DNA of 64,000 bases from Gemmatimonadota bacterium (GTDB lineage: Bacteria; JAAXHH01): the NCBI GenBank assembly GCA_026705925.1, contig JAPOZT010000019.1:49878-113877 (forward strand), written 5' to 3'. Below are positions 6,945 through 63,115 of the stretch, piece after piece. The notes under the pieces were generated by a model, which was given only the letters and a program-made list of their open reading frames with translations, was not told the DNA's origin and did no database searches. Within the stretch, counting starts at the first letter, position 1. Every line of letters starts with the position of its first letter. The position numbers and the translations under genes were made by a program.

Positions 6945-7703
6945 ATGTCCGATGCTACATCGCCGAATATCGTCCCCAAGACCTACACCTGCTACCGTGC
7001 CTGCGGCTCGATCGCGATCGACGGAAAGCTGAGCGATCCGTCCTGGATCCGGGCGCCCCGCACCGACCTCTTCGTCGACATCGAGGGCGACCTCAAGCCC
7101 ATCCCGCGCTTTGGCACGCGCGCCATGATGCTGTGGGACGACGAGTACTTCTACGTCGCCGCGGACATGGAGGAACCGGACGTCTGGGGCACACTGACCA
7201 AGCGGGATTCCGTCATCTGTCTCGACAACGACTTTGAGGTGTTTATCGATCCCGACGGGGACACCAATCACTACATGGAGTTCGAGATCAACCCCTTGAA
7301 CACCGCCTGGGACCTGTACCTGCCCAAGCCCTACAGCAAGGGCGGGAAAGCCGATCACGACTGGGACTTCGAGGGCGTGCGGCACGCCGTCCATATCGAC
7401 GGAACGGTCAACTGCTCCCACGACGTGGACCGCGGCTGGTCCACCGAAATAGCCTTTCCCTGGACCAGCATGGCCGAATACGCCGGCGTCGACTGTCCTC
7501 CCAGGGCCGGAGATTCCTGGCGGGTCAACTTCTCACGGGTCGAGTGGGAATTCGAGCGTTACAAGGACGGCTATCTGAAGAAAGAGGGGGTTCCCTGCGA
7601 CAACTGGGTCTGGTCGCCGCAGGGAGAGATCAACATGCATATCCCCGAGATGTGGGGACACGTCGTGTTTTCGGATACCATCGTAGGAACGGCGGCGATG
7701 TGA
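6945..7703 (+). CDS. carbohydrate-binding family 9-like (CBM9/DOMON-like) protein
   Basis: IDGKLSDPSW...FEVFIDPDGD...WSTEIAFPW pattern typical of CBM9-like domains. Confidence 0.55.
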   Translation: MSDATSPNIVPKTYTCYRACGSIAIDGKLSDPSWIRAPRTDLFVDIEGDLKPIPRFGTRAMMLWDDEYFYVAADMEEPDVWGTLTKRDSVICLDNDFEVFIDPDGDTNHYMEFEINPLNTAWDLYLPKPYSKGGKADHDWDFEGVRHAVHIDGTVNCSHDVDRGWSTEIAFPWTSMAEYAGVDCPPRAGDSWRVNFSRVEWEFERYKDGYLKKEGVPCDNWVWSPQGEINMHIPEMWGHVVFSDTIVGTAAM

Positions 7704-7723
7704 CGGTTTGTTGCCTTGCCCGT

Positions 7724-8050
7724 TCAGGTTAGCTTCATCACGGTCAAGATTGCCCCGAAGCCCGTTACGAAAATCCCAATAGACCATCGAAACAGTGTAT
7801 TCGAGTGGGCGATCATTTCCGTTCTCATCCGCTCCATGTCCGTTCTCATCTGTTCCATGTCTGTTCTCAGTACACCTAGATCGTCACGTGTGGCTACATG
7901 CTCCAGTTTCTCCTCGATTCTGGTCAATCGGATCTTGATGTTGTCCGAACTGTAGTACAGATCGTCCTCGATCCGCCTGATGGACGCCGCGATTTCCCGT
8001 GAACTCATCCCGGTATTGCCGGTTGGACGTTTGCTTTTTGACTGGTTCAT
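7724..8050 (-). CDS. DUF1640-like tail-anchored coiled-coil protein (paralog D)
   Basis: N-terminal conserved NxSKSKRPTGxTGMSSREIxASIRRIEDDLY shared with neighbour. (T/R)xDL / RTxM heptad repeats. C-terminal TM helix (WSIGIFVTGFGAILTVMKL). Contains 21-nt in-frame tandem repeat. Confidence 0.6.
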   Translation of the reverse strand: MNQSKSKRPTGNTGMSSREIAASIRRIEDDLYYSSDNIKIRLTRIEEKLEHVATRDDLGVLRTDMEQMRTDMERMRTEMIAHSNTLFRWSIGIFVTGFGAILTVMKLT

Positions 8051-8086
8051 TTTCGTCTAGCGGTCCTCCCATTGACCTCTGTTTGT

Positions 8087-8509
8087 TCAGGTTAGCTTCA
8101 ATACGGCCAAGATGACCCCCATGCAGGAAACAACAACGCCGATTGTCCATCGAAATTGCGTGTGAACTAGGGCGATCATTTCCGTTCTCAATTCTGCAAG
8201 GTCTTCCTGTGTGGCGAATGCCCCCAGATCGTCCTTTGTGGCAAAGGCCTTCAAATCTTCCTTTGTGGCAAAGGCCTTCAGATCGTCACGTGTGACGAAC
8301 GCTTTCAGATCATCACGGGTGGCGAATGCTTTCAGGTCGTCACGTGTGACGACATGCTCCAGCTTCTCCTCGATCCTGGTCAGGCGTATCATGATGTTGT
8401 CGGACCCGAAATACAGATCATCTTCGATCCGCCTGATGGACGCCTCGATTTCCCGCGAACTCATCCCGGTTCCGCCGGTTGGTCGTTTGCTTTTTGGATT
8501 GTTCATCAC
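8087..8509 (-). CDS. DUF1640-like tail-anchored coiled-coil protein (paralog E) with expanded TRDDLKAFA repeat
   Basis: Same N-terminus and C-terminal TM as 7724-8050. Five to six in-frame 27-nt tandem units encoding TRDDLKAFA variants. Confidence 0.6.
   Translation of the reverse strand: MMNNPKSKRPTGGTGMSSREIEASIRRIEDDLYFGSDNIMIRLTRIEEKLEHVVTRDDLKAFATRDDLKAFVTRDDLKAFATKEDLKAFATKDDLGAFATQEDLAELRTEMIALVHTQFRWTIGVVVSCMGVILAVLKLT
8214..8348 (-). repeat. in-frame 27-nt tandem repeat array (about 5 units) inside DUF1640-like gene E
   Basis: Units ggcaaaggccttcaRatcKtcMYKtgt seen directly. Paralog D has a 21-nt x2.5 repeat at about 7820-7875. Confidence 0.8.
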
Positions 8510-8906
8510 ACCTGTCCTTTTTGGTTAGTATGGTGACTCATTGATCATACCGATTTGCATGTGAGACGTAGAAAACGCTCCGGTTTGCTTTCTGCCCTCT
8601 GATTCTCTCGTGCTGTAGCACACCTTCGGGGATCGGCGCCACGAATCCACCGCGAATCCTCCGGATCAACGCCCTATAAATGTTTCAGTAGTAGCGCGCT
8701 CGAGATATCTCGTGTTTTACTTTATTTAAAGGCGGTTGGCACGGCGGAGATCGTGTTCGCGATCATCTCATCGCATCACAAATACGATTTAGTTTTTCTA
8801 TAATTAAAATCTAATTTTGGTTTATATAAAATCAACTTGCGTTTATATGAACACTGATTTATCTTTTTAACTAAAATGAGAAAGAACAACGAATCGTGGA
8901 AATCTT

Positions 8907-51636: not shown

Positions 51637-52431
51637 TTACCTCGTGGTCTGGAACGGTCGAACTGTTCCGGAGAAAGGTAACGGCGGATCAAGTCGCCAA
51701 ACCCGGGATACAGCCGCAATTCTGGCCAGTTTTGCATACGCTCCGTCAATCGAATCGTATTCGGCTTCAAACCGGTCAATGGTACCGGACGTTTCACCAG
51801 GATGTTCTCCCATAGATTCGGAGTGCGACGTATTCCCGGTGGATGCGTCATACACCAGTGAAAGGTTGAATAACACCGGTTTGCCTTCCGATTTGCCGTC
51901 ACTGGCGAAGATGACCGCCGGCAGTACGGGAACGATACCGACGTTTCCGTATACAGACGCAAATTCAGCCGGCGTTACGGAACTCCGGGGCCGGATGATG
52001 AATCGACTGCCATACCGATCGACACAGAGCAGCGCTTCCTCGGGGGATCGAATGCCCAGCCTGCCGGGAATCGCGATACCGAACCGGTAGGTAATAACAT
52101 CCTTCTCATAGTCCGACGCCGGATCCCCCTCGAACTCCAGTTCCGTCCCGGGACCCGCAGGGAACTGGACGACGCGAGAACGATCATAGACCGGGTCGTT
52201 TACGACCGGAGGGTGGTTAGGACCGTGGTGCACGGGCCGGACCAGGGACATCGCATTGAAGACGGCCGGTGCCGGCTTCCAATGCAGCGCCGGCTGCACC
52301 TGCTGCGCCGGCTTCGTCGACTGCTTCACCTGCGGTGACGTCGTGGAATCCGAGAATCCGATCCAGGCGACCACGAACGTGACCGCGAGTAAAGGAACCA
52401 GAAAGTAGGAAACCAGGGTTGACCGTGACAT
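51637..52431 (-). CDS. hypothetical protein with N-terminal signal-anchor/TM
   Basis: 264-aa ORF. Hydrophobic N-terminus (LVSYFLVPLLAVTFVVAWIGF). Confidence 0.45.
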   Translation of the reverse strand: MSRSTLVSYFLVPLLAVTFVVAWIGFSDSTTSPQVKQSTKPAQQVQPALHWKPAPAVFNAMSLVRPVHHGPNHPPVVNDPVYDRSRVVQFPAGPGTELEFEGDPASDYEKDVITYRFGIAIPGRLGIRSPEEALLCVDRYGSRFIIRPRSSVTPAEFASVYGNVGIVPVLPAVIFASDGKSEGKPVLFNLSLVYDASTGNTSHSESMGEHPGETSGTIDRFEAEYDSIDGAYAKLARIAAVSRVWRLDPPLPFSGTVRPFQTTR

Positions 52432-52834: not shown

Positions 52835-54058
52835 TCAGGAATTGGAAATCTGCGGCGGCCGCAATCCGGTGTATCTGGCCCGCGGCCGGATGAGCTGGTC
52901 CCTTTCGTACTGTTCGATCGCGTGTCCGATCCAGCCGGCCGTGCGGCCGAGGGCGAACAGGGCCATGGCGCTGCCTTCGGGCATATTCAGGACGCGCACC
53001 AGCGCCGTGAGGGCCAGGTCGATGTTGTAACGGTCCGGGACCAGACGATGGGTTGTTTCGATGATTTCCCGCGCGAGTAGCAGGTCCTTCGATCCCGGAA
53101 ACCGATCTTCCAGCTTGCGCAACAGCAGGCTTGCCCGCGGGTCCACGTCGCGATAGACGGCGTGGCCGAACCCGGGGATCTTCTCACCGATCCGCAACCG
53201 ATTGGCGATCGCCCGTTCAACGCTGCCGATCGATTCCGCCTCTTGAAACAGCGCTTCGACCCGCTCGCTGGCCGCGCCGTGTTTATAGCCGCGCAGTGCG
53301 GCGAGACCCGCGCAGACCGCACTGTAGGGCGTCGTTCCCGCCGATGCGGCGCATCGCACCGTAAAGGTCGATACATTCAATTCGTGATCCGCGAACAGCA
53401 CCAGGGTCGTATTGATCAGCTCCGCCGCGCCTTCAATGTCCGGCGCCCAGGCCCTTCGCAAGGCCTGGGCGATCCCACCCATCGGGTCTTCGCCCGTGGC
53501 CACACCCGTCATGAACCAGAGAATCCGCATGCCCGTGGCGGCGACCGTGTCCCGCCGCAGGTCCAGTGCGGCCAGGTCATCCGCCTCGGCCAGGGGAAGC
53601 AGCGTCTGGAAGCGTTCGACGGGTTTGAGGTTGTTCAATTTCAACCAGCTTTCGCGGTAGTCTCTCTGATAGGTGTTCGAGAAAATGGGAAAGGAGAATC
53701 GCTTGTCATTGGTCCAGATCAGGGCCGCAACGCGCTCGAACGATTCGTTTGCCGCCAGGATCGTCGCGTCCCGGCCCCGGTAGAACAGCCGCTCGTCCGT
53801 GATCAACGTAATCGCCGATTCCAGGATAGGATCCCCCGTGTACAGGGCTCGTTTTACCGCCCAACCCGGATTCCGGCGGGATCTCTTGCGGGCTTTCAAC
53901 CGCTCGATGTCTTCACTGCGATACAACCGCTTCCGTCTGCCGTCGCCGCTTTCTTCGGACCGGATCATGCCGCGGCTAACATACGCATAGAGCGTAGATG
54001 GACTGACATTCAGCGCGGAAGCCGCTTCGGTGGATGTCATGTATCTTCTGCTGTTCAC
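52835..54058 (-). CDS. HTH (MerR/excisionase-type) fused to citrate-synthase-like domain
   Basis: N-terminal MTSTEAASALNVSPSTLYAYVSRG HTH. Citrate-synthase motifs ADHELNVSTFT, YKHGAASE (His), GFGHAVYRDVDPRA (His), GRTAGWIGHAIEQ. Confidence 0.7.
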   Translation of the reverse strand: MNSRRYMTSTEAASALNVSPSTLYAYVSRGMIRSEESGDGRRKRLYRSEDIERLKARKRSRRNPGWAVKRALYTGDPILESAITLITDERLFYRGRDATILAANESFERVAALIWTNDKRFSFPIFSNTYQRDYRESWLKLNNLKPVERFQTLLPLAEADDLAALDLRRDTVAATGMRILWFMTGVATGEDPMGGIAQALRRAWAPDIEGAAELINTTLVLFADHELNVSTFTVRCAASAGTTPYSAVCAGLAALRGYKHGAASERVEALFQEAESIGSVERAIANRLRIGEKIPGFGHAVYRDVDPRASLLLRKLEDRFPGSKDLLLAREIIETTHRLVPDRYNIDLALTALVRVLNMPEGSAMALFALGRTAGWIGHAIEQYERDQLIRPRARYTGLRPPQISNS

Positions 54059-54077
54059 TGCAATGTCCTCTCGTATA

Positions 54078-54145
54078 TACGGCCCGTTGTGGGTTACGGC
54101 CCGTTGTGGGTTACGGCCCGTTGTGGGTTCCGGGCCGTTGTGGGG
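54078..54145. repeat. 17-bp tandem repeat x4 (tacggcccgttgtgggt) in divergent promoter
   Basis: Read directly. Followed by palindromes TCAATATTGA and TGACA-ata-TGTCA at 54166-54215. Confidence 0.85.
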
Positions 54146-54257
54146 TGTCCCATTTCAAGAATATATGTTGATTGATATTTTAATCAATATTGACAATATG
54201 TCAAATCACCTTTTGTTAGATACGGACGGGACAACTGCCTGATAAAGGAGGAACGAC

Positions 54258-55337
54258 TTGCACCAGATCGCCGTGCTGCCCGGAGACGGGATCGGACCTG
54301 AAATAACCCGCGAGGCCGTTAAGGTTCTGAAGGCTGTAGGGGAGCGACACCAACTGGATCTCGATTTCTCCCACCACCTGGTCGGGGGAGCGCTGCTCGA
54401 TGCGCAGGGCGTCGCCTTGTCCGATGAACTCGTGGAGGCTTGCAGGCGCAGCGACGCGGTACTCTTCGGCGCGGTGGGCGGGCCAAAATGGGACCACCTG
54501 GACATGCAGGACCGGGCGGACCATGCCCTGATTCGACTACGGCAGGAACTAAACGTCTACGCGAATCTACGGCAGTTCCGATTGTACGCGGGGCTGGAAG
54601 ACGCGTCCGCAGTCAAAGCCGATCTCATAAGCGGGGGTGTTGATTTCATCATACTGCGCGAGCTTTCCAGCGGCGCCTACTACGGACGGCCCAAGTTCAG
54701 CGAAGTCACCTCCAGCGGCCGGCGGGCCGTCGATACCATCGAGTACTACGATTTCCAGGTCGAACGACTGGCCCGCTACGGATACGAACTGGCGCGGCAG
54801 AGGCGTGGGAGGCTGACCTCGATGTCGAAGTGGAATGCCCTGGAATCCTCCAGGCTCTGGCGCGATGTCGTCGATGAAGTGGCCCCGGTATATCCCGATG
54901 TCGATACACGGCATGAAATCGTCGACGCAGGCGCCATGAACCTGATCCAGCGGCCCGCCGAGTACGACGTGATCGTCATGCCCAACATGTTCGGTGATAT
55001 ACTGGGCGACGAGGCGGCCGTTCTTGCCGGGTCTATCGGAATGGTCCCGTCCGCGGAGATCTCGCTGGACGGCACCTCGCTGTATGAGCCGATACACGGG
55101 AGTGCGAATGACATCGAAGGCAAGAACATCGCGAATCCCATCGGAACGATCCTGAGCGGCGCCCTGATGTTCCGGTACAGCCTGGACTGTCCCGACGGCG
55201 CCGACGAGATCGAACGCGCGGTCGGCAGGGTGATCGAAGAAGGATACAGGACCGCGGACATCCTGAGGTCGCCCGGTCAACAGAGGGTATCCACGTTGGA
55301 AATGGGCGATCTGGTGGTTGAAATGTTAAGGGAGTGA
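54258..55337 (+). CDS. isopropylmalate/isocitrate/tartrate dehydrogenase family (IPMDH-like)
   Basis: TTG start with AGGAGG-N7. IAVLPGDGIGPEI, NLFGDILSD-like (NMFGDILGDEAA) motifs. Confidence 0.75.
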   Translation: MHQIAVLPGDGIGPEITREAVKVLKAVGERHQLDLDFSHHLVGGALLDAQGVALSDELVEACRRSDAVLFGAVGGPKWDHLDMQDRADHALIRLRQELNVYANLRQFRLYAGLEDASAVKADLISGGVDFIILRELSSGAYYGRPKFSEVTSSGRRAVDTIEYYDFQVERLARYGYELARQRRGRLTSMSKWNALESSRLWRDVVDEVAPVYPDVDTRHEIVDAGAMNLIQRPAEYDVIVMPNMFGDILGDEAAVLAGSIGMVPSAEISLDGTSLYEPIHGSANDIEGKNIANPIGTILSGALMFRYSLDCPDGADEIERAVGRVIEEGYRTADILRSPGQQRVSTLEMGDLVVEMLRE

Positions 55338-55339
55338 TC

Positions 55340-56470
55340 ATGTCTTACTCACCTGGACTCAAGGACGTCGTAGCGGCGGAAACCCGCCTGAGTCATGTCG
55401 ATGGCGAAGCCGGCATACTGGTCATCGGGGGATATCCACTCGAGGAGATTGCCGAAAGGGCGACTTACGAGGAGATGGTATACCTCCTTTGGCACGGGAG
55501 GCTGCCCACCGAGGCTGCCCTCGAGGGATTCGCTGGCGAACTGGCTGCGAGCCGCCCGCTGCCCGGTGTCACCCACGATCTGTTGCGCGGCGCGGCGAAG
55601 GAACGCCGACCTGTCATCGACGTGGTTCGCATGGCCGCGGCCTCCCTTCCTTCCATCGACGACACAGCCGACGCCCGGTCCCTGGTGGCCGGCCTGCCGA
55701 CCATCGTGGCGGCCTACTGGCGCCTTCTTCACGGCAAAGAACCGGTAGCACCCGACGCCAGTCTCGGCCACGCGGCCAATCTGCTGTACATGCTGGACGG
55801 CGAAAACCCCGGCGGTGATCGCGTACGGGCACTGACGACCTATCTCAACACGGTGATCGACCACGGCATGAACGCTTCCACCTTCACGGCGCGGGTTATC
55901 GTTTCCACGCGTTCGGACTTCGTTTCTGCCGTTTCAGGTGCGATCAGCGCGCTCAAAGGACCCCTCCACGGCGGCGCACCCGGCCCCGTCATTTCCATGC
56001 TCGAAGCGATCGGCGACGCCGATAACGCCGAATCCTACCTTCGCGAACGGCTTGAGTCCGGTGAACGGCTCATGGGTTTCGGTCACGCGGTATACCGGGT
56101 TCGCGACCCGCGGGCCGACGTCCTTTCGCGCGCCGCGCGCGCCTTCTTCGACCATGAAGACGACGACCGTGAAGACGACCTGTACGACCTGTACGACCTG
56201 GCCGTGCACGTCGAGAAAACCGCCCTCGAACTCCTCGAAGAATACAAACCCGGCCGGCGCCTGCAGACCAACGTCGAGTTCTACACCGCTCTTCTCCTCA
56301 AGGGGCTGGGGCTCCACCCGGACCTCTTCACCCCCATGTTCGCCGTGGGACGCGTCGCCGGCTGGACCGCACACTGCATCGAGCAGCGGGCCGTCGATCG
56401 TATCTTTCGTCCGGAATCTCTTTACTCGGGCGAGATGGCCAGACAGTGGACGCCCCGTGATGAGCGGTAG
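55340..56470 (+). CDS. citrate synthase (short about 375-aa type; could be 2-methylcitrate synthase)
   Basis: GPLHGGA, GFGHAVYRVRDPRA, GRVAGWTAHCIEQ. Acidic insertion with 9-nt tandem repeat. Overlaps upstream gene stop. Confidence 0.8.
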   Translation: MSYSPGLKDVVAAETRLSHVDGEAGILVIGGYPLEEIAERATYEEMVYLLWHGRLPTEAALEGFAGELAASRPLPGVTHDLLRGAAKERRPVIDVVRMAAASLPSIDDTADARSLVAGLPTIVAAYWRLLHGKEPVAPDASLGHAANLLYMLDGENPGGDRVRALTTYLNTVIDHGMNASTFTARVIVSTRSDFVSAVSGAISALKGPLHGGAPGPVISMLEAIGDADNAESYLRERLESGERLMGFGHAVYRVRDPRADVLSRAARAFFDHEDDDREDDLYDLYDLAVHVEKTALELLEEYKPGRRLQTNVEFYTALLLKGLGLHPDLFTPMFAVGRVAGWTAHCIEQRAVDRIFRPESLYSGEMARQWTPRDER

Positions 56471-56609
56471 CTTATTGCCACGGGTACTCATCTACTTAAC
56501 GCTGGCATAACGTGTCCGAATCTCGCATAATACCATCTTGAGACATCTATACGGTTGAGGACATGACTTCAGGTTGATCTTGCGGGCAATACCGGGAGAG
56601 GAACAGGCT

Positions 56610-57500
56610 ATGGCGATGGTCGACATGAAGCAGATCCACGCGCTGGAAGATGCGACGGACCTGCTGAGACGCCCCGACGAACTGCGGCAACGCGCCGCGG
56701 AGCACGGCTGCCTGTTCTTTCGGCGACTGCTCGATCCGGCGCGCGTGATGGAGGTCCGGCGCCAGGTGCTCGGTGTGTGCCGGGAACACGGGTGGCTTGC
56801 CCCCGGTTCGGATCTCATGGACGGCATCGCGAATCCCGAAATCAGCGTGTTCGAAGGCGACGACCCGCGCTGGACTGCTTTCTACGACGATGTCCAGCGG
56901 ATCCGCGACTTCCACGCACTGGCCCTCGACCCCGCAATCATCCACATGCTCGAAGTGCTGTTCGGAGAACCCGTGCTTGCCCACAGCCGGAACATCTGCC
57001 GGCTCGTATTCCCGGACACGAACACCCACTCGACCCCGCCGCACCAGGACAACTATTTCATCGGCGGTTCGGACGAGACGTGGACGGGCTGGATTCCGCT
57101 GGGAGACTGTCCGGAGGAACTCGGCGGACTCGCCGTCAACCGGAGATCCCACCGTAGCGGCATGCTGGAAACGACCGAGGGCGTGGGGCCGGGCGGGCGG
57201 CAGGTTCCCGTAGAGGACGATTCCGCCTGGGTCGGCGGCGACTACGCCTGCGGCGACGTGATTATCCTGCACAGCCTGACGATTCACCAGGGCCGGGACA
57301 ACATGACCACGGATCGTCTCCGGCTGTCCTCCGACTATCGGTACCAGCCGAGAAGCCACCCCGTCCGGGAGGATTCTCTCCAGCCCCACATGAACTGGTT
57401 GACATGGGACCAAGTTTACGAAAACTGGGAGGAGGACGATCCGGTGAGGTACTATTGGCGGGATTGGCCCCTGGACGTGGTCAAGCGGGAGCCGCAGTAG
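56610..57500 (+). CDS. phytanoyl-CoA dioxygenase family, copy 5
   Basis: HTPPHQD...H pattern. Confidence 0.6.
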   Translation: MAMVDMKQIHALEDATDLLRRPDELRQRAAEHGCLFFRRLLDPARVMEVRRQVLGVCREHGWLAPGSDLMDGIANPEISVFEGDDPRWTAFYDDVQRIRDFHALALDPAIIHMLEVLFGEPVLAHSRNICRLVFPDTNTHSTPPHQDNYFIGGSDETWTGWIPLGDCPEELGGLAVNRRSHRSGMLETTEGVGPGGRQVPVEDDSAWVGGDYACGDVIILHSLTIHQGRDNMTTDRLRLSSDYRYQPRSHPVREDSLQPHMNWLTWDQVYENWEEDDPVRYYWRDWPLDVVKREPQ

Positions 57501-57617
57501 GCGGCCCGCGCCTGGACTTGCCCGCGCCTGGACAGGCCCTTGGACACGGTCCGCCTACGGCCACGCCGGCGCCTGGGCCTGTATCTGGACACTGCCCGCA
57601 CCAGGACACCCCCGGAT

Positions 57618-58733
57618 ATGCCCAATCCAGTTATCAAAACCGCCCAGCACCTGGTGCGCATGTTCCTCCCCAAACCGATGGCAGCGCTGGTCGATATGTC
57701 GGGGCGCTACGTGATCGTGACCGGGGCGTCACCCGGTTCGCTCGGGTACGAAACCGCGCGGGTCCTCGCGGGCTGGGGGGCCAAGGTCGTGGCGACCCGG
57801 GTCCGGCACGTAGCCCTGATGGAAGCGGCGCTGAAAGACGACCTTCGCAGGCGCGGCGACGACGCGGACAACCTCACGGCACACGCACTGGACCTCTCCG
57901 ATGCGCACAGCGTCAACGCCTTCGCCGCCTGGTACCGCGACCGACACCAGGGCAAGCTCCATGTGCTGATCAACAACGCGGGCATCCACAGGAAGACTTT
58001 GGCCCCGCGCAGCGAAGTGCCTTTGACCGAAGATGGCTTCGAAGTGCACTGGCGGACCAACTATCTCGGCGTCTTTCACCTGACCCGGGTGCTGCTGCCC
58101 CTCCTTCAACAATCCGGTATCGAAAGCGGCGACGCACGGGTCGTCAACGTGTCCTCCGGCCTGCACGACAGGGTAGGGAACGCGGACCTGTTCGACGAGG
58201 GGCCGAACCCCGACGGGTCGGGCCGCCACCAGCCGAACCGCTACCGGCCGCGCGGCGATTCAACACGCCGTAACTTGCCGAACGGCAACTTGCCGAACGG
58301 CAACTTGCCGCAACGTGATTTGTCACCCCGCGATAGGCCGCGCTACCACTCCTGGGACGCCTATGGGAAGTCGAAACTGGCGATGAATCACCTGGCCTTT
58401 GAAATCGAAAGGCGATTCGCCGAATCCCACAACCTGCACGGGATGGCCGTACACCCGGGCGTCGTCATGACCAACCTGACCCTGCCGCAAGCGTTTGAAG
58501 GCTGGATTGGTAAGGCACTCCATCGTATCAGTTCCGCGCTGGCCTCGCTGGTCCTGCTGTCCCCGAATGCCGGGGCGCAGACCATCGTGATGTGCGCGAG
58601 CCAGCGTCCCCTGCAAGGGGGAAGATACTATGAGCGCTGCGACATCGCCGAACCGAGCACGGACAGCCTCGACACCGACGCCTCGAAACGCCTGTGGGAA
58701 CAGTCGGAACAGTGGGTCGGGACGCTTGTGTAA
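57618..58733 (+). CDS. SDR family oxidoreductase (retinol-dehydrogenase-like) with low-complexity NLPNGNLPNGNLP insertion
   Basis: VTGASPGSLG, NNAG, YGKSK. 15-nt tandem repeat x2.6 at 58271-58313 encodes the insertion. Confidence 0.7.
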   Translation: MPNPVIKTAQHLVRMFLPKPMAALVDMSGRYVIVTGASPGSLGYETARVLAGWGAKVVATRVRHVALMEAALKDDLRRRGDDADNLTAHALDLSDAHSVNAFAAWYRDRHQGKLHVLINNAGIHRKTLAPRSEVPLTEDGFEVHWRTNYLGVFHLTRVLLPLLQQSGIESGDARVVNVSSGLHDRVGNADLFDEGPNPDGSGRHQPNRYRPRGDSTRRNLPNGNLPNGNLPQRDLSPRDRPRYHSWDAYGKSKLAMNHLAFEIERRFAESHNLHGMAVHPGVVMTNLTLPQAFEGWIGKALHRISSALASLVLLSPNAGAQTIVMCASQRPLQGGRYYERCDIAEPSTDSLDTDASKRLWEQSEQWVGTLV

Positions 58734-58855
58734 GGACGTGGTGCTCGCGCGGCCAACCATGCGGCACACAACGCAAACCGCGCTGAACATGTAGACAATT
58801 CGTAATCAACCCGGGTGAATCAACCCACGGGAATCAAGCTACAGGACAGCCCACT

Positions 58856-59626
58856 TTGGACAACGAACTATTAAAACGGGGGTTCTCACCCCGGCCGCTG
58901 ACGTCCGCGCAACGCAAGGCGCTGGACACCGATGGCTTCATCGTACTGGAGGAGATCATCTCGCCGGACTGGCTCGTCGGGCTGCGCCAGGCTTTCGATG
59001 AGATTCATGACCGCGAAGGCGAAAAGGCCGGAGAGGAGGTCGCCCAGATGGAAGGGGTACGCCGGCTTGCCGATCTGATTAACAAGGGATCGGTTTTCGA
59101 CGCGGTCTACCTGCAGCCCGAGCTCTTGACGGCGGTCTTCCATGTCCTGCAGCGGCCGTTCAAGCTGCACTCGCTCAACGGGCACGACCCGCTGCCGGGA
59201 AGCGGGCTGCAGATCCTGCACGCCGATTGGGGACAACCGACCGCACCCGGCGGACCCTACCACGTCGTCAACTCCATGTGGATGCTCGACGATTTCACCC
59301 GGGTCAACGGTGCGACGCGCTGCGTACCCGGCAGCCACCGAATATCCGGAAGGATTACCGACCATGTAGCTGATCGCCTGGCGGACCACCCCGGACAGGT
59401 CTACCTGACGGGCCGCGCCGGTTCGGTGGCCGTATTCAACGGCAGTCTCTGGCACAGTTCTTACATCAACCGCAGCGACGCCCCCCGGCGAGCCCTGCAC
59501 TGCGCCTTCATCGCCCGTGAACACCCCCAGCAGACGAATCAGCGCGAGTACCTCCGGCCCGAGACGGCTCTACGCCTGTCCCCGCTGGCGCGCTACATCC
59601 TGGACGTCGAGGACGACCCGCGGTAA
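58856..59626 (+). CDS. phytanoyl-CoA dioxygenase family, copy 6
   Basis: LHADW...PGSH...WHSS pattern. Confidence 0.6.
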   Translation: MDNELLKRGFSPRPLTSAQRKALDTDGFIVLEEIISPDWLVGLRQAFDEIHDREGEKAGEEVAQMEGVRRLADLINKGSVFDAVYLQPELLTAVFHVLQRPFKLHSLNGHDPLPGSGLQILHADWGQPTAPGGPYHVVNSMWMLDDFTRVNGATRCVPGSHRISGRITDHVADRLADHPGQVYLTGRAGSVAVFNGSLWHSSYINRSDAPRRALHCAFIAREHPQQTNQREYLRPETALRLSPLARYILDVEDDPR

Positions 59627-61201: not shown

Positions 61202-62341
61202 ATGATCGAATGGCTGGGTATCGAACACCTTTTCGAACTGTCCCGGACGGAAGCGATCTGGGGATTCTTCACCCCGCTGATCGTCTACGCCGCGTTTTTT
61301 GTGGTCCAACTCATGCTTCCCGGCAGGTGGGTCCCCGGCTACGTCGTCAACCCGGCGACCGGCGAACCCCGAAACTACCGCCTGAACGGCATGCTCGTGT
61401 TCTTGATCGCGATCGTCGTGTGGGCGCTCGAACTCACCGGGCTTCCCCACGACTGGTTCTACCGGTCCTCGGTCTATGCCGTGGCCGGCGGAACGGTCTT
61501 CAGCATAATCTTCACCCTGATCGCCGTGTTTACCCAACCGGAAGGCAAGGTGAAAAACAGGTTCCTGGCGTGGTGGTTCGGCCGTGCGCAGGAGATTTCG
61601 TTCTTCAACGAACGCATCGACGTGAAGATGTACATGTATGTCGTCGGGGGAACGATGCTGTCGCTCAACGCCCTTTCCGGCGCGGTGTATCACTACGAAC
61701 TCTTCGGCGAGAAAGCCAATCCGGGCGTCATCCTCTACGCGGCGTTCTTCACCTTCTACATCATGGACTACATGGTCTTCGAGCGCGTACAGCTCTATAC
61801 CTACGACCTGATCCACGAGAATGTCGGCTTCAAGCTGATCTGGGGCTGCCTCGTGGTCTACGGCTGGTTGTTCATCCTGCCGCTGTGGGGCATGGCCGCG
61901 TACCCGAACCCCGGGTTCTCACCCGCCTGGACGAATGTCTGGCTCATCGGCGCGTCCGCGCTGTTCCTCTTCGGCTGGGGCATCTCGCGCGGCGCCAACC
62001 TGCAGAAATACACCTTCAAGCGATGGCCGGACCGCAAGTTCCTCGGCCTCATCGCGCCGAAGTACATCCAGGCCGGCGAACGCAGGATCCTGTGCAGCGG
62101 CCTGTGGGGCGTCGCCCGTCACCTCAACTACATGGGCGAGGGGTTCCTTGCCCTGTCCATCGCCCTGATATTCGGTTGCTTCACCAACTTCTGGGCGTGG
62201 ACCTATTTCATCTTCATCGTGTCCCTGTTCGTCTACCGGCAGTGGGACGACGACCGTCACTGCGCCGAGAAGTACGGCGCCGAAAATTGGGCGGAATACA
62301 AGGAGCGGGTGAAGTACCGGATCGTGCCGGGGATCTACTAA
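61202..62341 (+). CDS. sterol-reductase family polytopic membrane protein (ERG4/ERG24/DHCR7-like C-terminal signature)
   Basis: LWGVARHLNYMGE...YRQWDDDRHCAEKYGAENWAEYKERVKYRIVPGIY closely resembles the conserved C-terminus of eukaryotic sterol C14/C7/C24 reductases. Confidence 0.6.
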   Translation: MIEWLGIEHLFELSRTEAIWGFFTPLIVYAAFFVVQLMLPGRWVPGYVVNPATGEPRNYRLNGMLVFLIAIVVWALELTGLPHDWFYRSSVYAVAGGTVFSIIFTLIAVFTQPEGKVKNRFLAWWFGRAQEISFFNERIDVKMYMYVVGGTMLSLNALSGAVYHYELFGEKANPGVILYAAFFTFYIMDYMVFERVQLYTYDLIHENVGFKLIWGCLVVYGWLFILPLWGMAAYPNPGFSPAWTNVWLIGASALFLFGWGISRGANLQKYTFKRWPDRKFLGLIAPKYIQAGERRILCSGLWGVARHLNYMGEGFLALSIALIFGCFTNFWAWTYFIFIVSLFVYRQWDDDRHCAEKYGAENWAEYKERVKYRIVPGIY

Positions 62342-62398
62342 GGGAGGGTCGAAGCATTTGTATTCCAGGCACTTCTCGTTCCGACAGCCATCAAGGAG

Positions 62399-63115
62399 AT
62401 GCCGCCAATGGCCTCCAGCAGCACACAGGAATTTCTGAGGTTACTGCACTCCGTGAAGGACAAATACAATGGTCCTGAAGAACTTGATATTCGAAAAGGT
62501 GAGCTGAAAAACGGTATCCGGGAGGCGGAACAGGCGTTCGTGGGAAAGTTCCCGAAAAACAGTCGCCTTCTGGACATTGGTTGCGCGTCGGGACGATTGT
62601 GCTTCGCACTTGCGCGGCAGGGATACGACGTCACCGGTATCGATGTCGCCGAAAATCAGATTGAACAGGCAAGACGTACCGCGGAAGCGGAAGGCGTCGA
62701 CGTGACGTTCCTACAGTACGAGATGCCGAATCTGCCTTTTCCCGACGCCTCATTTGCCGCTGCATTTATGGGAAACGTTTACTGCTATGTCCCGTACCGC
62801 GCGTCACGTATCGCTTTTCTGGAAGAGATCGCGCGGGTGCTATATCCGAATGGCGAGGTGTTTCTTTCGCAGACTGTCCTGGATTCCGTACTGGAGAGTT
62901 ACGATGACCTCTGCGATGACAACCATCGTAAGTTCGCTCCCGATTACGAGACCCTGGAGGAGGGAGACGGATTCGTGCTGGGAGCGCCCCAGTTTCTGCA
63001 CTTCTTCTTCGCCGATGATCTCATGGCAGAACTGGAAACATCTTCATTTCATGTGGCGAGTCCAGAATTGAAGAAGTCAGATTTCAAGTGTGTTTTACGT
63101 AAGCGCAATATATGA
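62399..63115 (+). CDS. class I SAM-dependent methyltransferase
   Basis: LLDIGCASGR motif I, GYDVTGIDV motif II. Lower GC than flanks. Confidence 0.7.
   Translation: MPPMASSSTQEFLRLLHSVKDKYNGPEELDIRKGELKNGIREAEQAFVGKFPKNSRLLDIGCASGRLCFALARQGYDVTGIDVAENQIEQARRTAEAEGVDVTFLQYEMPNLPFPDASFAAAFMGNVYCYVPYRASRIAFLEEIARVLYPNGEVFLSQTVLDSVLESYDDLCDDNHRKFAPDYETLEEGDGFVLGAPQFLHFFFADDLMAELETSSFHVASPELKKSDFKCVLRKRNI

Follow-up and report, generated by a model that had tools for sequence, protein, structure and literature searches.

A winged helix-turn-helix fused to a citrate-synthase fold and encoded divergently from citrate synthase: a probable enzyme-derived transcription factor in many bacterial phyla

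What is the role of a protein that carries a DNA-binding domain in front of a citrate-synthase fold, when an ordinary citrate synthase (CS) is encoded right beside it? The question is raised by a 64,000-nt stretch of DNA from a Gemmatimonadota bacterium (JAAXHH01; assembly GCA_026705925.1, contig JAPOZT010000019.1, positions 49,878-113,877), hereafter the window, in which the gene for such a helix-turn-helix (HTH) fusion is transcribed divergently from a leuB-type gene and a CS gene. Citrate synthase gates the entry of carbon into the tricarboxylic acid (TCA) cycle, and to our knowledge dedicated regulators of this enzyme are known in few model organisms only (CitR, CcpC/CcpE, HgtR). An interpretation made earlier from the DNA letters alone (the sequence-only reading) had seen in the fusion an enzyme-derived transcription factor controlling the divergent genes. 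As far as the CS gene is concerned, this idea is borne out by a winged HTH, by the recurrent adjacency of the fusion gene to CS and by a near-invariant dyad that travels with it, and we consider it probable that the protein is a transcription factor in which the CS fold serves as effector and dimerisation module.

A winged helix-turn-helix followed by a complete citrate-synthase fold

The fusion gene and the parts of its product are as follows (positions are those of the window):

52835-54058, minus strand: HTH/citrate-synthase-like fusion gene (407 aa; GTG start, ribosome-binding site (RBS) GAGAGGA 8 nt upstream)
53873-54043, minus strand: winged helix-turn-helix (residues 6-62; AlphaFold2 secondary structure, block pLDDT 77-93)
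53828-53872, minus strand: basic helix and flexible linker (residues 63-77; pLDDT <50 in residues 68-77)
52859-53836, minus strand: complete citrate-synthase fold (residues 75-400; Pfam and Foldseek)

The open reading frame (ORF) is real, its GTG start being supported by relatives that carry ATG at the same position, and the two-domain architecture proposed from the letters was recovered in profile searches, with Pfam matches to HTH_17 (34.9 bits, cut-off 27, residues 6-58) and to Citrate_synt (206.8 bits, residues 75-393). PF13411 MerR_1 is also matched above its cut-off (34.4 versus 21.6 bits), PF00376 MerR remains under it (21.3 versus 28.2 bits), and Pfam detected neither of the LysR-type domains HTH_1 and LysR_substrate in the protein. 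An AlphaFold2 model based on an alignment of 87 homologues (mean pLDDT 89.6) indeed gives the N-terminus as a winged HTH, composed of a strand (6-8), a helix (9-16), a recognition helix (20-28, STLYAYVS), a beta-hairpin wing (34-47) and a further helix (48-62). Residues Y24, Y26, V27, S28, R29 and G30 are invariant among the 87 homologues, whose recognition helix reads TLYxYVSRG. Beyond the wing, the model contains only helices 48-62 and 64-73, then the low-confidence linker (68-77) and the 330-residue CS fold; the long coiled-coil dimerisation helix of MerR proteins is absent from this place.

In a Foldseek comparison with the PDB, the best neighbours were (methyl)citrate synthases (target-normalised TM 0.64-0.75), none of them with an HTH. 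All 21 NCBIfam models for CS and citryl-CoA lyase stayed under their cut-offs (best TIGR01800, 157.8 versus 421.3), and the fusion shares only ~29% identity with the CS encoded next to it in the window. The protein is therefore not assignable to the MerR proteins, whose HTH it matches but whose coiled coil it lacks and whose promoter geometry it seems not to share, nor to the citrate synthases, whose fold it shares but whose model cut-offs it fails and whose coenzyme A (CoA)-binding elements it has lost.

A large and widespread family

The best 120 database matches to the fusion are all ~400 aa long and of the same architecture, and their public names are 'citrate synthase family protein' only; the window's own 90%-identity cluster is named 'MerR family transcriptional regulator' in Gemmatimonadota metagenome-assembled genomes (MAGs). 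The N-terminal 215 residues alone matched 1392 clusters of 50% identity at E<=1e-10. Scanning one genome per species with HTH-specific peptide patterns, we confirmed fusion loci in at least 596 species genomes from more than 13 phyla, out of which 80 loci were kept for neighbourhood counts. These 80 derive from Chloroflexota, Actinomycetota (Rubrobacter), Acidobacteriota, Gemmatimonadota, Latescibacterota, Binatia, Myxococcota, Verrucomicrobiota, Deinococcota, Spirochaetia, Alpha-, Beta- and Gammaproteobacteria and others, with Reyranella, Paraburkholderia and Deinococcus as cultured carriers. At species level, Reyranella massiliensis, Parvibaculum sp., Deinococcus pimensis and Paraburkholderia franconis are carriers that can be cultured. 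A literature search, with subscription-only publications outside its reach, returned no paper on an HTH-CS fusion and no report of a regulator with a CS fold, in agreement with the sequence-only reading, which knew of no characterised example. The family is large and widespread, and apparently uncharacterised.

A near-invariant dyad upstream of the fusion gene

The intergenic region contains a putative operator flanked and overlapped by promoter-like elements:

54172-54194, minus strand: putative operator, GTCAAT-A-TTGATT-AAAA-TATCAA, which contains TCAATATTGA; sole match in the 64-kb window
54190-54195, plus strand: TTGACA, a -35-like hexamer directed toward leuB and CS, 2 nt from the dyad
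54177-54204, minus strand: promoter-like site of the fusion gene (TTGACA-16-TAAAAT, 11/12), with its -10 at the dyad centre; a consensus match only

The site follows a family consensus, GTCAATnTTGATT-N4-AATCAA(TAT), from which the copy in the window deviates by one mismatch. The aligned consensus, TtGTCAAT.TTGATT.aa..AATCAATATat, reaches ~2 bits per position at GTCAA, TTGAT and ATCAA, and its symmetric part, (AT)nTTGATT-N4-AATCAAn(AT), places the half-site centres 10 bp apart. Scored over the 12 half-site positions TTGATT/AATCAA, TTGATT-N4(5)-AATCAA was present with a score of at least 9/12 in all 59 intergenic regions between directly adjacent CS and fusion genes (59/59, 34 of them perfect). 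In the species genomes, it was found within 330 bp upstream of the fusion gene in 75 of 80 testable cases. Of the 16 loci lacking a CS, 13 still have it ahead of the fusion gene. Elsewhere the motif is rare, with only seven matches in 860 kb of locus sequence, four of which belong to the module itself, with an extra gene between CS and fusion (three by the CS start, one inside the fusion gene of L038), and one to a duplicated copy. No further copy was found in the 64-kb window. The operator block does not vary in the window's close relatives, unlike the DNA that flanks it; an extra TTGA at 54168-54171 stems from a short duplication.

As an independent test, metagenome contigs were scanned with the motif alone as query, yielding at least 120 matches, of which 80 loci were fetched. 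The N-terminus of a fusion gene lay directly downstream, within 330 nt, in 57 of the 72 testable loci, and followed after an inserted gene in three more. The divergent upstream gene was a CS in 42, an HMGL-like gene in 18 and neither in 9 of 69 loci.

The two palindromes that the sequence-only reading had regarded as operators are both present (TCAATATTGA at 54184-54193, TGACAataTGTCA at 54191-54203). By themselves they are weak evidence; the former, which is AT-rich, gains weight by lying inside a motif that is conserved across phyla, whereas TGACA-ata-TGTCA is specific to the window's lineage. The invariance of the recognition helix TLYxYVSRG matches that of the operator.

The dyad also has a regular position relative to a promoter. 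In the other loci, a CS-ward TTGAC lies 2 nt past the dyad in 53 of 58 cases, and a -10 element of the form TAnnnT follows at 16-18 nt in 30 of 58, the matches to TATAAT peaking at a spacing of 17-18. Because TTGACn sits 2 nt after the dyad and the -10 matches peak at this spacing, the dyad directly adjoins the -35 of the CS promoter; its centre falls near -45.5, and the palindrome reaches the -35 with its outer arm.

A second operator copy, beside a 90-aa CS fragment and 2.5 kb from the main module, was observed in L025 (6062-6410) and looks like a partial duplication.

Citrate synthase as the conserved partner

On the other side of the operator, the window encodes two genes that overlap by 4 nt:

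54258-55337, plus strand: leuB-type 3-isopropylmalate dehydrogenase (IPMDH) gene (TTG start, AGGAGG 6 nt upstream; TIGR00169 425.3 versus cut-off 353.2)
55334-56470, plus strand: CitA-type citrate synthase, the conserved partner (PRK12350 subfamily, 351.3 versus cut-off 332)

Both identifications of the sequence-only reading, a TTG-initiated IPMDH-like gene and a bona fide short CS, are confirmed by these equivalog and subfamily cut-offs. The best PDB match of the partner CS is 2C6X, citrate synthase 1 (CitA) of Bacillus subtilis, with an identical NVEFY motif in which Glu replaces the catalytic Asp. This Glu is found in 61 of 63 partner CSs, which thereby form a distinct type.

The divergent neighbours of the fusion gene are distributed as follows:

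Plain CS directly adjacent (intergenic region of 44-279 bp): 57 of 80 loci
CS with one gene between: 7 of 80 loci
CS fragment at a contig end: 1 of 80 loci
HMGL-like enzyme (NifV/LeuA/CimA family, under all equivalog cut-offs): 5 of 80 loci
Family III CoA-transferase: 3 of 80 loci
Other or untestable: 7 of 80 loci

The predicted association with CS and IPMDH genes thus holds for the former and fails for the latter, as an IPMDH gene is adjacent to the fusion gene in none of the 80 loci (0/80), and leuB lies between operator and CS gene in the window's lineage only (window, L001, L086-L091). For this reason IPMDH was discarded as a conserved partner, and the small 2-oxoacid pathway that the sequence-only reading had envisaged cannot be the general target. 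ORF clustering across the 80 loci, although polluted by antisense ORFs in these GC-rich genomes, revealed nothing widely recurrent besides CS and the fusion.

The HMGL-like partner (~435-460 aa; L020, L021, L054, L073, L075, as well as L104, L113, L166, L171 and others) has the nifV homocitrate synthase model as its best NCBIfam match, far under the cut-off. The HMGL/homocitrate-synthase family includes the Re-citrate synthases, which are often misannotated under its name (PMC12016533); it is therefore plausible that the HMGL-like partner forms citrate too, perhaps as a Re-citrate synthase. That the same operator stands before this unrelated enzyme argues that the control logic tracks the reaction and not the gene family. 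In L171, the HMGL-like gene has the operator and there is no fusion gene within 7 kb, a hint that the regulator may also have targets in trans.

Family III CoA-transferases are the divergent partner in Paraburkholderia and one Chloroflexota locus (L067 2628-4070, L085 4464-5858, L017 1-540), occur near the module in L020, L034, L048 and L053, and form a cluster of eight loci in the ORF clustering. Genes have also been inserted on either side of the operator: a PALP gene (pyridoxal-phosphate-dependent, threonine-dehydratase-like, ~320 aa) separates operator and fusion gene in L014, L015, L023, L128 and L103, a Chloroflexota-type lineage, and an aminotransferase (L009) and a methyltransferase gene (L006) on the CS side parallel the leuB insertion of the window. 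The partner CS is broken into two to three ORFs (7551-8693) in L001, a 98%-identical relative.

A preserved oxaloacetate pocket and a degraded CoA side

The fusion protein of the window keeps both catalytic His contexts named in the sequence-only reading, H260 (YKHGAASE) and H299 (GFGHAVYRD), as well as D347 (NIDLA), which completes the catalytic triad. When 77 fusion-family members were aligned with 63 neighbouring plain CSs, these and further active-site residues proved to be conserved in nearly all fusions (H225 in 73, N228 in 73, H260 in 76, H299 in 73, R308 in 77, D347 in 72, R372 in 76 and R391 in 77 of the 77). The ligand and catalytic residues of the fusion are the equivalents of H238, N242, H274, H320, R329, D375 and R401 of pig CS, and their oxaloacetate-binding and catalytic roles were assigned in part from a preprint (bioRxiv 10.1101/2024.11.06.622199).

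The CoA side presents a different picture. The equivalent of pig Arg324, a basic residue four positions after the second His, is Pro in 63 of 77 fusions versus Lys or Arg in 58 of 63 partner CSs, and the loop preceding the catalytic Asp is 7 residues shorter in 72 of 77 fusions than in all partner CSs (63/63). In solved CS complexes, this loop (365-369) binds CoA (bioRxiv 10.1101/2024.11.06.622199). The CS active site is hence intact in one part, with oxaloacetate/citrate and catalytic residues kept, but not in the other, where the CoA loop is deleted and the Arg324 equivalent mostly replaced by Pro; the alignment points to a family in which the oxaloacetate/citrate pocket is preserved and the CoA site degraded. 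Among the ligands proposed by the sequence-only reading, acetyl-CoA becomes the least likely, because the features that bind CoA are eroded. We would give an even chance to the suggestion that oxaloacetate or citrate is the ligand instead, and the idea of a sensor that has lost catalysis seems to us just as finely balanced.

The tandem repeat and other features of the window

Between the operator and the RBS of the fusion gene lies a conspicuous repeat:

54078-54145, no strand assigned: 17-bp tandem repeat inside the 5' untranslated region (5'UTR) of the fusion gene, with three perfect copies and one with 3 mismatches; resembling a variable-number tandem repeat

The repeat had been described as four perfect copies and as part of the regulatory layout. 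Three copies are perfect and the fourth is degenerate (3.9 copies and 96% matches in the tandem repeat program TRF); it is unique in the window (4 matches versus 0.21 expected) and begins 19 nt from the GTG, with the RBS in between. A relative with an identical fusion protein (L086) has the same repeat as the window, while a different unit, of ~16 nt, occurs twice in L087, L088 and L001, and yet another ~3 times in L091, although the fusion proteins of all of these belong to the window's 90%-identity cluster. The repeat is thus hypervariable, of a fast-evolving slippage type rather than a conserved regulatory site, and with its absence or replacement in such close relatives its proposed regulatory function was abandoned and it was rejected as an operator. 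The RNA of the 5'UTR (54050-54172, minus strand) forms a more stable fold than shuffled sequences do (z = -3.7), which is due to complementarity between the degenerate fourth copy (ACGGCCCG) and the remaining ones (CGGGCCGT); no Rfam family, riboswitch or other known RNA, was matched in the intergenic region and UTR.

Further away, a 264-aa ORF downstream of the fusion gene (51637-52431, minus strand) has no Pfam match, and unannotated genes of 261-264 aa follow the fusion gene in L086-L090 too. At 61202-63115, a gene of the ERG4/ERG24 sterol-reductase family (379 aa, Pfam 135.9 bits) is followed by an S-adenosylmethionine-dependent methyltransferase gene, and in its vicinity (also at 56574-59626) lie several PhyH dioxygenases and an SDR with an odd NLPNGNLPNGNLPQRDL insertion. 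This gene set recurs in the relatives L001 and L002, and may represent a sterol or isoprenoid-lipid modification cluster of this Gemmatimonadota MAG lineage.

A proposed mechanism and its alternatives

We propose that the CS domain would dimerise, like all citrate synthases, so that two HTHs would be positioned over successive major grooves in the dyad. Once the oxaloacetate/citrate pocket is occupied, the domains would swing from the open to the closed state, as is typical of citrate synthases, and this closure would change the geometry of the HTHs and hence DNA binding. In this way the protein would control the divergent CitA-type CS (in the window, the leuB-CS operon) and also its own gene. 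We favour a non-catalytic sensor of oxaloacetate or citrate that acts as a repressor, perhaps by overlapping the -35 and its own promoter.

Several observations speak against this proposal or complicate it. DNA binding and dimerisation are inferred, as are the ligand and the sign of regulation, and the HTH by itself gave nothing significant when compared with the sequences of solved structures in the PDB. The catalytic triad shows the same degree of conservation as the binding residues, which leaves room for residual catalysis, and in the window's own clade Arg303 is retained even though the loop deletion is present. In the window, a canonical -10 after the TTGACA directed toward leuB and CS was not found; the leuB insertion has evidently changed the CS-ward promoter side there. 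In 14 of 75 loci no more than 3 nt separate the dyad from the start codon, so that a promoter of the fusion gene is hard to place there. Finally, in three 79%-identical relatives (L002-L004), leuB is absent and only an 88-aa remnant of the CS persists (L002, 7544-7810), with the fusion gene intact and the operator perfect; since regulator and operator have outlived the CS, the latter cannot be the regulator's sole purpose in these genomes.

The alternatives are, in order of likelihood, a trigger enzyme, a MerR-type activator, a heteromer and the absence of any regulatory role. A bifunctional trigger enzyme, with CS- or citryl-CoA-type catalysis and with turnover or substrate occupancy gating DNA binding as in PutA or BirA, would account for the conservation of H260, H299, D347 and the oxaloacetate-binding Arg and His residues in 72-77 of 77 fusions, for the Arg303 of the window's clade and for the weak matches to citryl-CoA lyase models. 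We nevertheless hold it to be unlikely, given the shortened CoA loop and the Pro at the Arg324 position in most of the family, the failure of every NCBIfam CS cut-off, and the intact separate CS that nearly always adjoins the fusion gene and would make a second synthase seem redundant. A related and more far-reaching scenario, doubtful as it is, would have the protein act as a catalytically live flux sensor: the supply of oxaloacetate and acyl-CoA would be read by turnover and converted to occupancy at an operator that spans phyla, in a cassette moved between genomes and wired either to a Si-type, CitA-like CS or to an HMGL-type, Re-citrate-synthase-like enzyme. If true, this would amount to a portable control module for TCA entry and a ready-made oxaloacetate/citrate biosensor.

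In a canonical MerR-type activator, the dyad would lie in the over-long 19-20 bp spacer of the protein's own promoter, and the ligand-bound protein would untwist the DNA. MerR_1 is indeed matched above its cut-off, and the fusion-ward consensus allows such a promoter (TtGTCA-N19-TATat): in TtGTCA-AT-n-TTGATT-N4-AATCAA-TATat the spacing is 19 bp, or 20 bp with N5, and the half-sites are 4 nt apart, as in the mer operator, whose half-sites are separated by 4 nt. Yet a strict -10 (TAnnnT) past the dyad occurs in only 12 of 75 sites, the start codon overlaps its position in the 14 loci mentioned above, the 'TAT' is equally explained as the outer arm of the palindrome, the model has no long coiled-coil helix after the wing, and in the better-supported, CS-ward promoter the spacer is of normal length (17 bp) and the dyad precedes the -35. 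The long-spacer promoter is thus a weak candidate, and we regard this activator as improbable. Protein-protein contact offers a third possibility, as fusion and CS are paralogous, share a fold that is obligately dimeric and have neighbouring genes in 57 of 80 genomes: they could form a heterodimer in which the fusion is a regulatory subunit, or in which CS titrates the regulator off the DNA. Such a heterodimer is disfavoured, and very improbable in our view, by the occurrence of non-homologous partners (HMGL-like in 5 of 80 genomes and 18 of 69 motif-first loci, CoA-transferase in 3 of 80), by the operator kept in 13 of 16 loci without CS, by the persistence of the fusion gene where CS has decayed and by the ~29% identity of the two proteins. 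It could lastly be imagined that there is no regulatory role, the N-terminus being a remnant of an excisionase or mobile element, as HTH_17 is an excisionase-type family, or that the conspicuous 17-bp repeats are the real binding sites. Comparative data already contradict this last view, to which we attach hardly any probability: no integrase or mobile-element genes were found in the neighbourhood of the fusion gene, more than 13 phyla share one fixed architecture together with its cognate dyad, and the repeats are not conserved within a single 90%-identity protein cluster.

Relation to known regulators and implications

Functionally, the closest counterpart of the proposed CS-fold transcription factor is the citA-citR pair of B. 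subtilis. Jin and Sonenshein reportedly described CitR in 1994 as a LysR-type repressor encoded divergently from the minor citrate synthase CitA. In both cases a dedicated regulator is encoded divergently from a CitA-type CS, and the partner CS of the window shares the NVEFY of the B. subtilis enzyme, but CitR has a LysR-type architecture with a periplasmic-binding-protein-like effector domain, whereas the fusion combines a MerR/excisionase-type winged HTH with a CS fold; the two are functional analogues, not homologues. With the MerR and HTH_17 proteins, the fusion shares the N-terminal winged HTH, which matches both Pfam models, and an operator dyad with a 4-nt centre. It differs from MerR proteins in having no long antiparallel coiled coil, as the 330-residue enzyme fold would dimerise and sense instead. 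The promoter layout also seems to differ, the dyad apparently preceding a promoter of normal spacing instead of occupying a 19-20 bp spacer.

Regulators whose effector domain has an enzyme fold include MocR/GabR/PdxR (aminotransferase fold) and NrtR (Nudix fold), and RbkR, a riboflavin-kinase regulator, is said to belong here too. In all of these, as in the fusion, an HTH is joined to a domain from an enzyme family of the regulated pathway, with the pocket kept and catalysis reduced or repurposed; the fusion differs by its CS fold, its HTH type and its target at TCA entry. It displays the traits of enzyme-fold transcription factors, which are a functional class and not a homology family: a DNA-binding domain joined to an enzyme-family domain, a candidate operator at the pathway genes of that enzyme family, and co-localisation that is conserved. 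PutA and BirA, which are trigger enzymes, likewise unite a DNA-binding domain and an enzyme domain of the regulated pathway in one polypeptide, but they are fully active, whereas the fusion has eroded CoA-binding elements and a separate CS alongside.

CcpC and CcpE are citrate-responsive LysR-type regulators of TCA-entry genes (PMC13288900, PMC11315280). The control of TCA-cycle entry genes and the response to citrate would be common ground, but CcpC and CcpE belong to an unrelated protein family and to Firmicutes, whereas the fusion occurs in Chloroflexota, Acidobacteriota, Gemmatimonadota, Proteobacteria, Deinococcota and others. In Caulobacter, the citrate synthase CitA controls the cell cycle in a way that does not depend on its catalysis (PMC7083601). 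It is another example of a CS fold used in regulation beyond catalysis, although it has no DNA-binding domain and acts by a non-transcriptional route.

The fusion family presents a clear and testable case for an enzyme fold recruited as a sensor, with a putative operator defined to the base pair, and this motif enables the prediction of regulons in thousands of genomes. The protein-operator pair is also a candidate biosensor for oxaloacetate or citrate. Many of the carriers belong to uncultured lineages of soil, sponges and wastewater, in which the family would constitute a widespread alternative regulator of citrate synthase.

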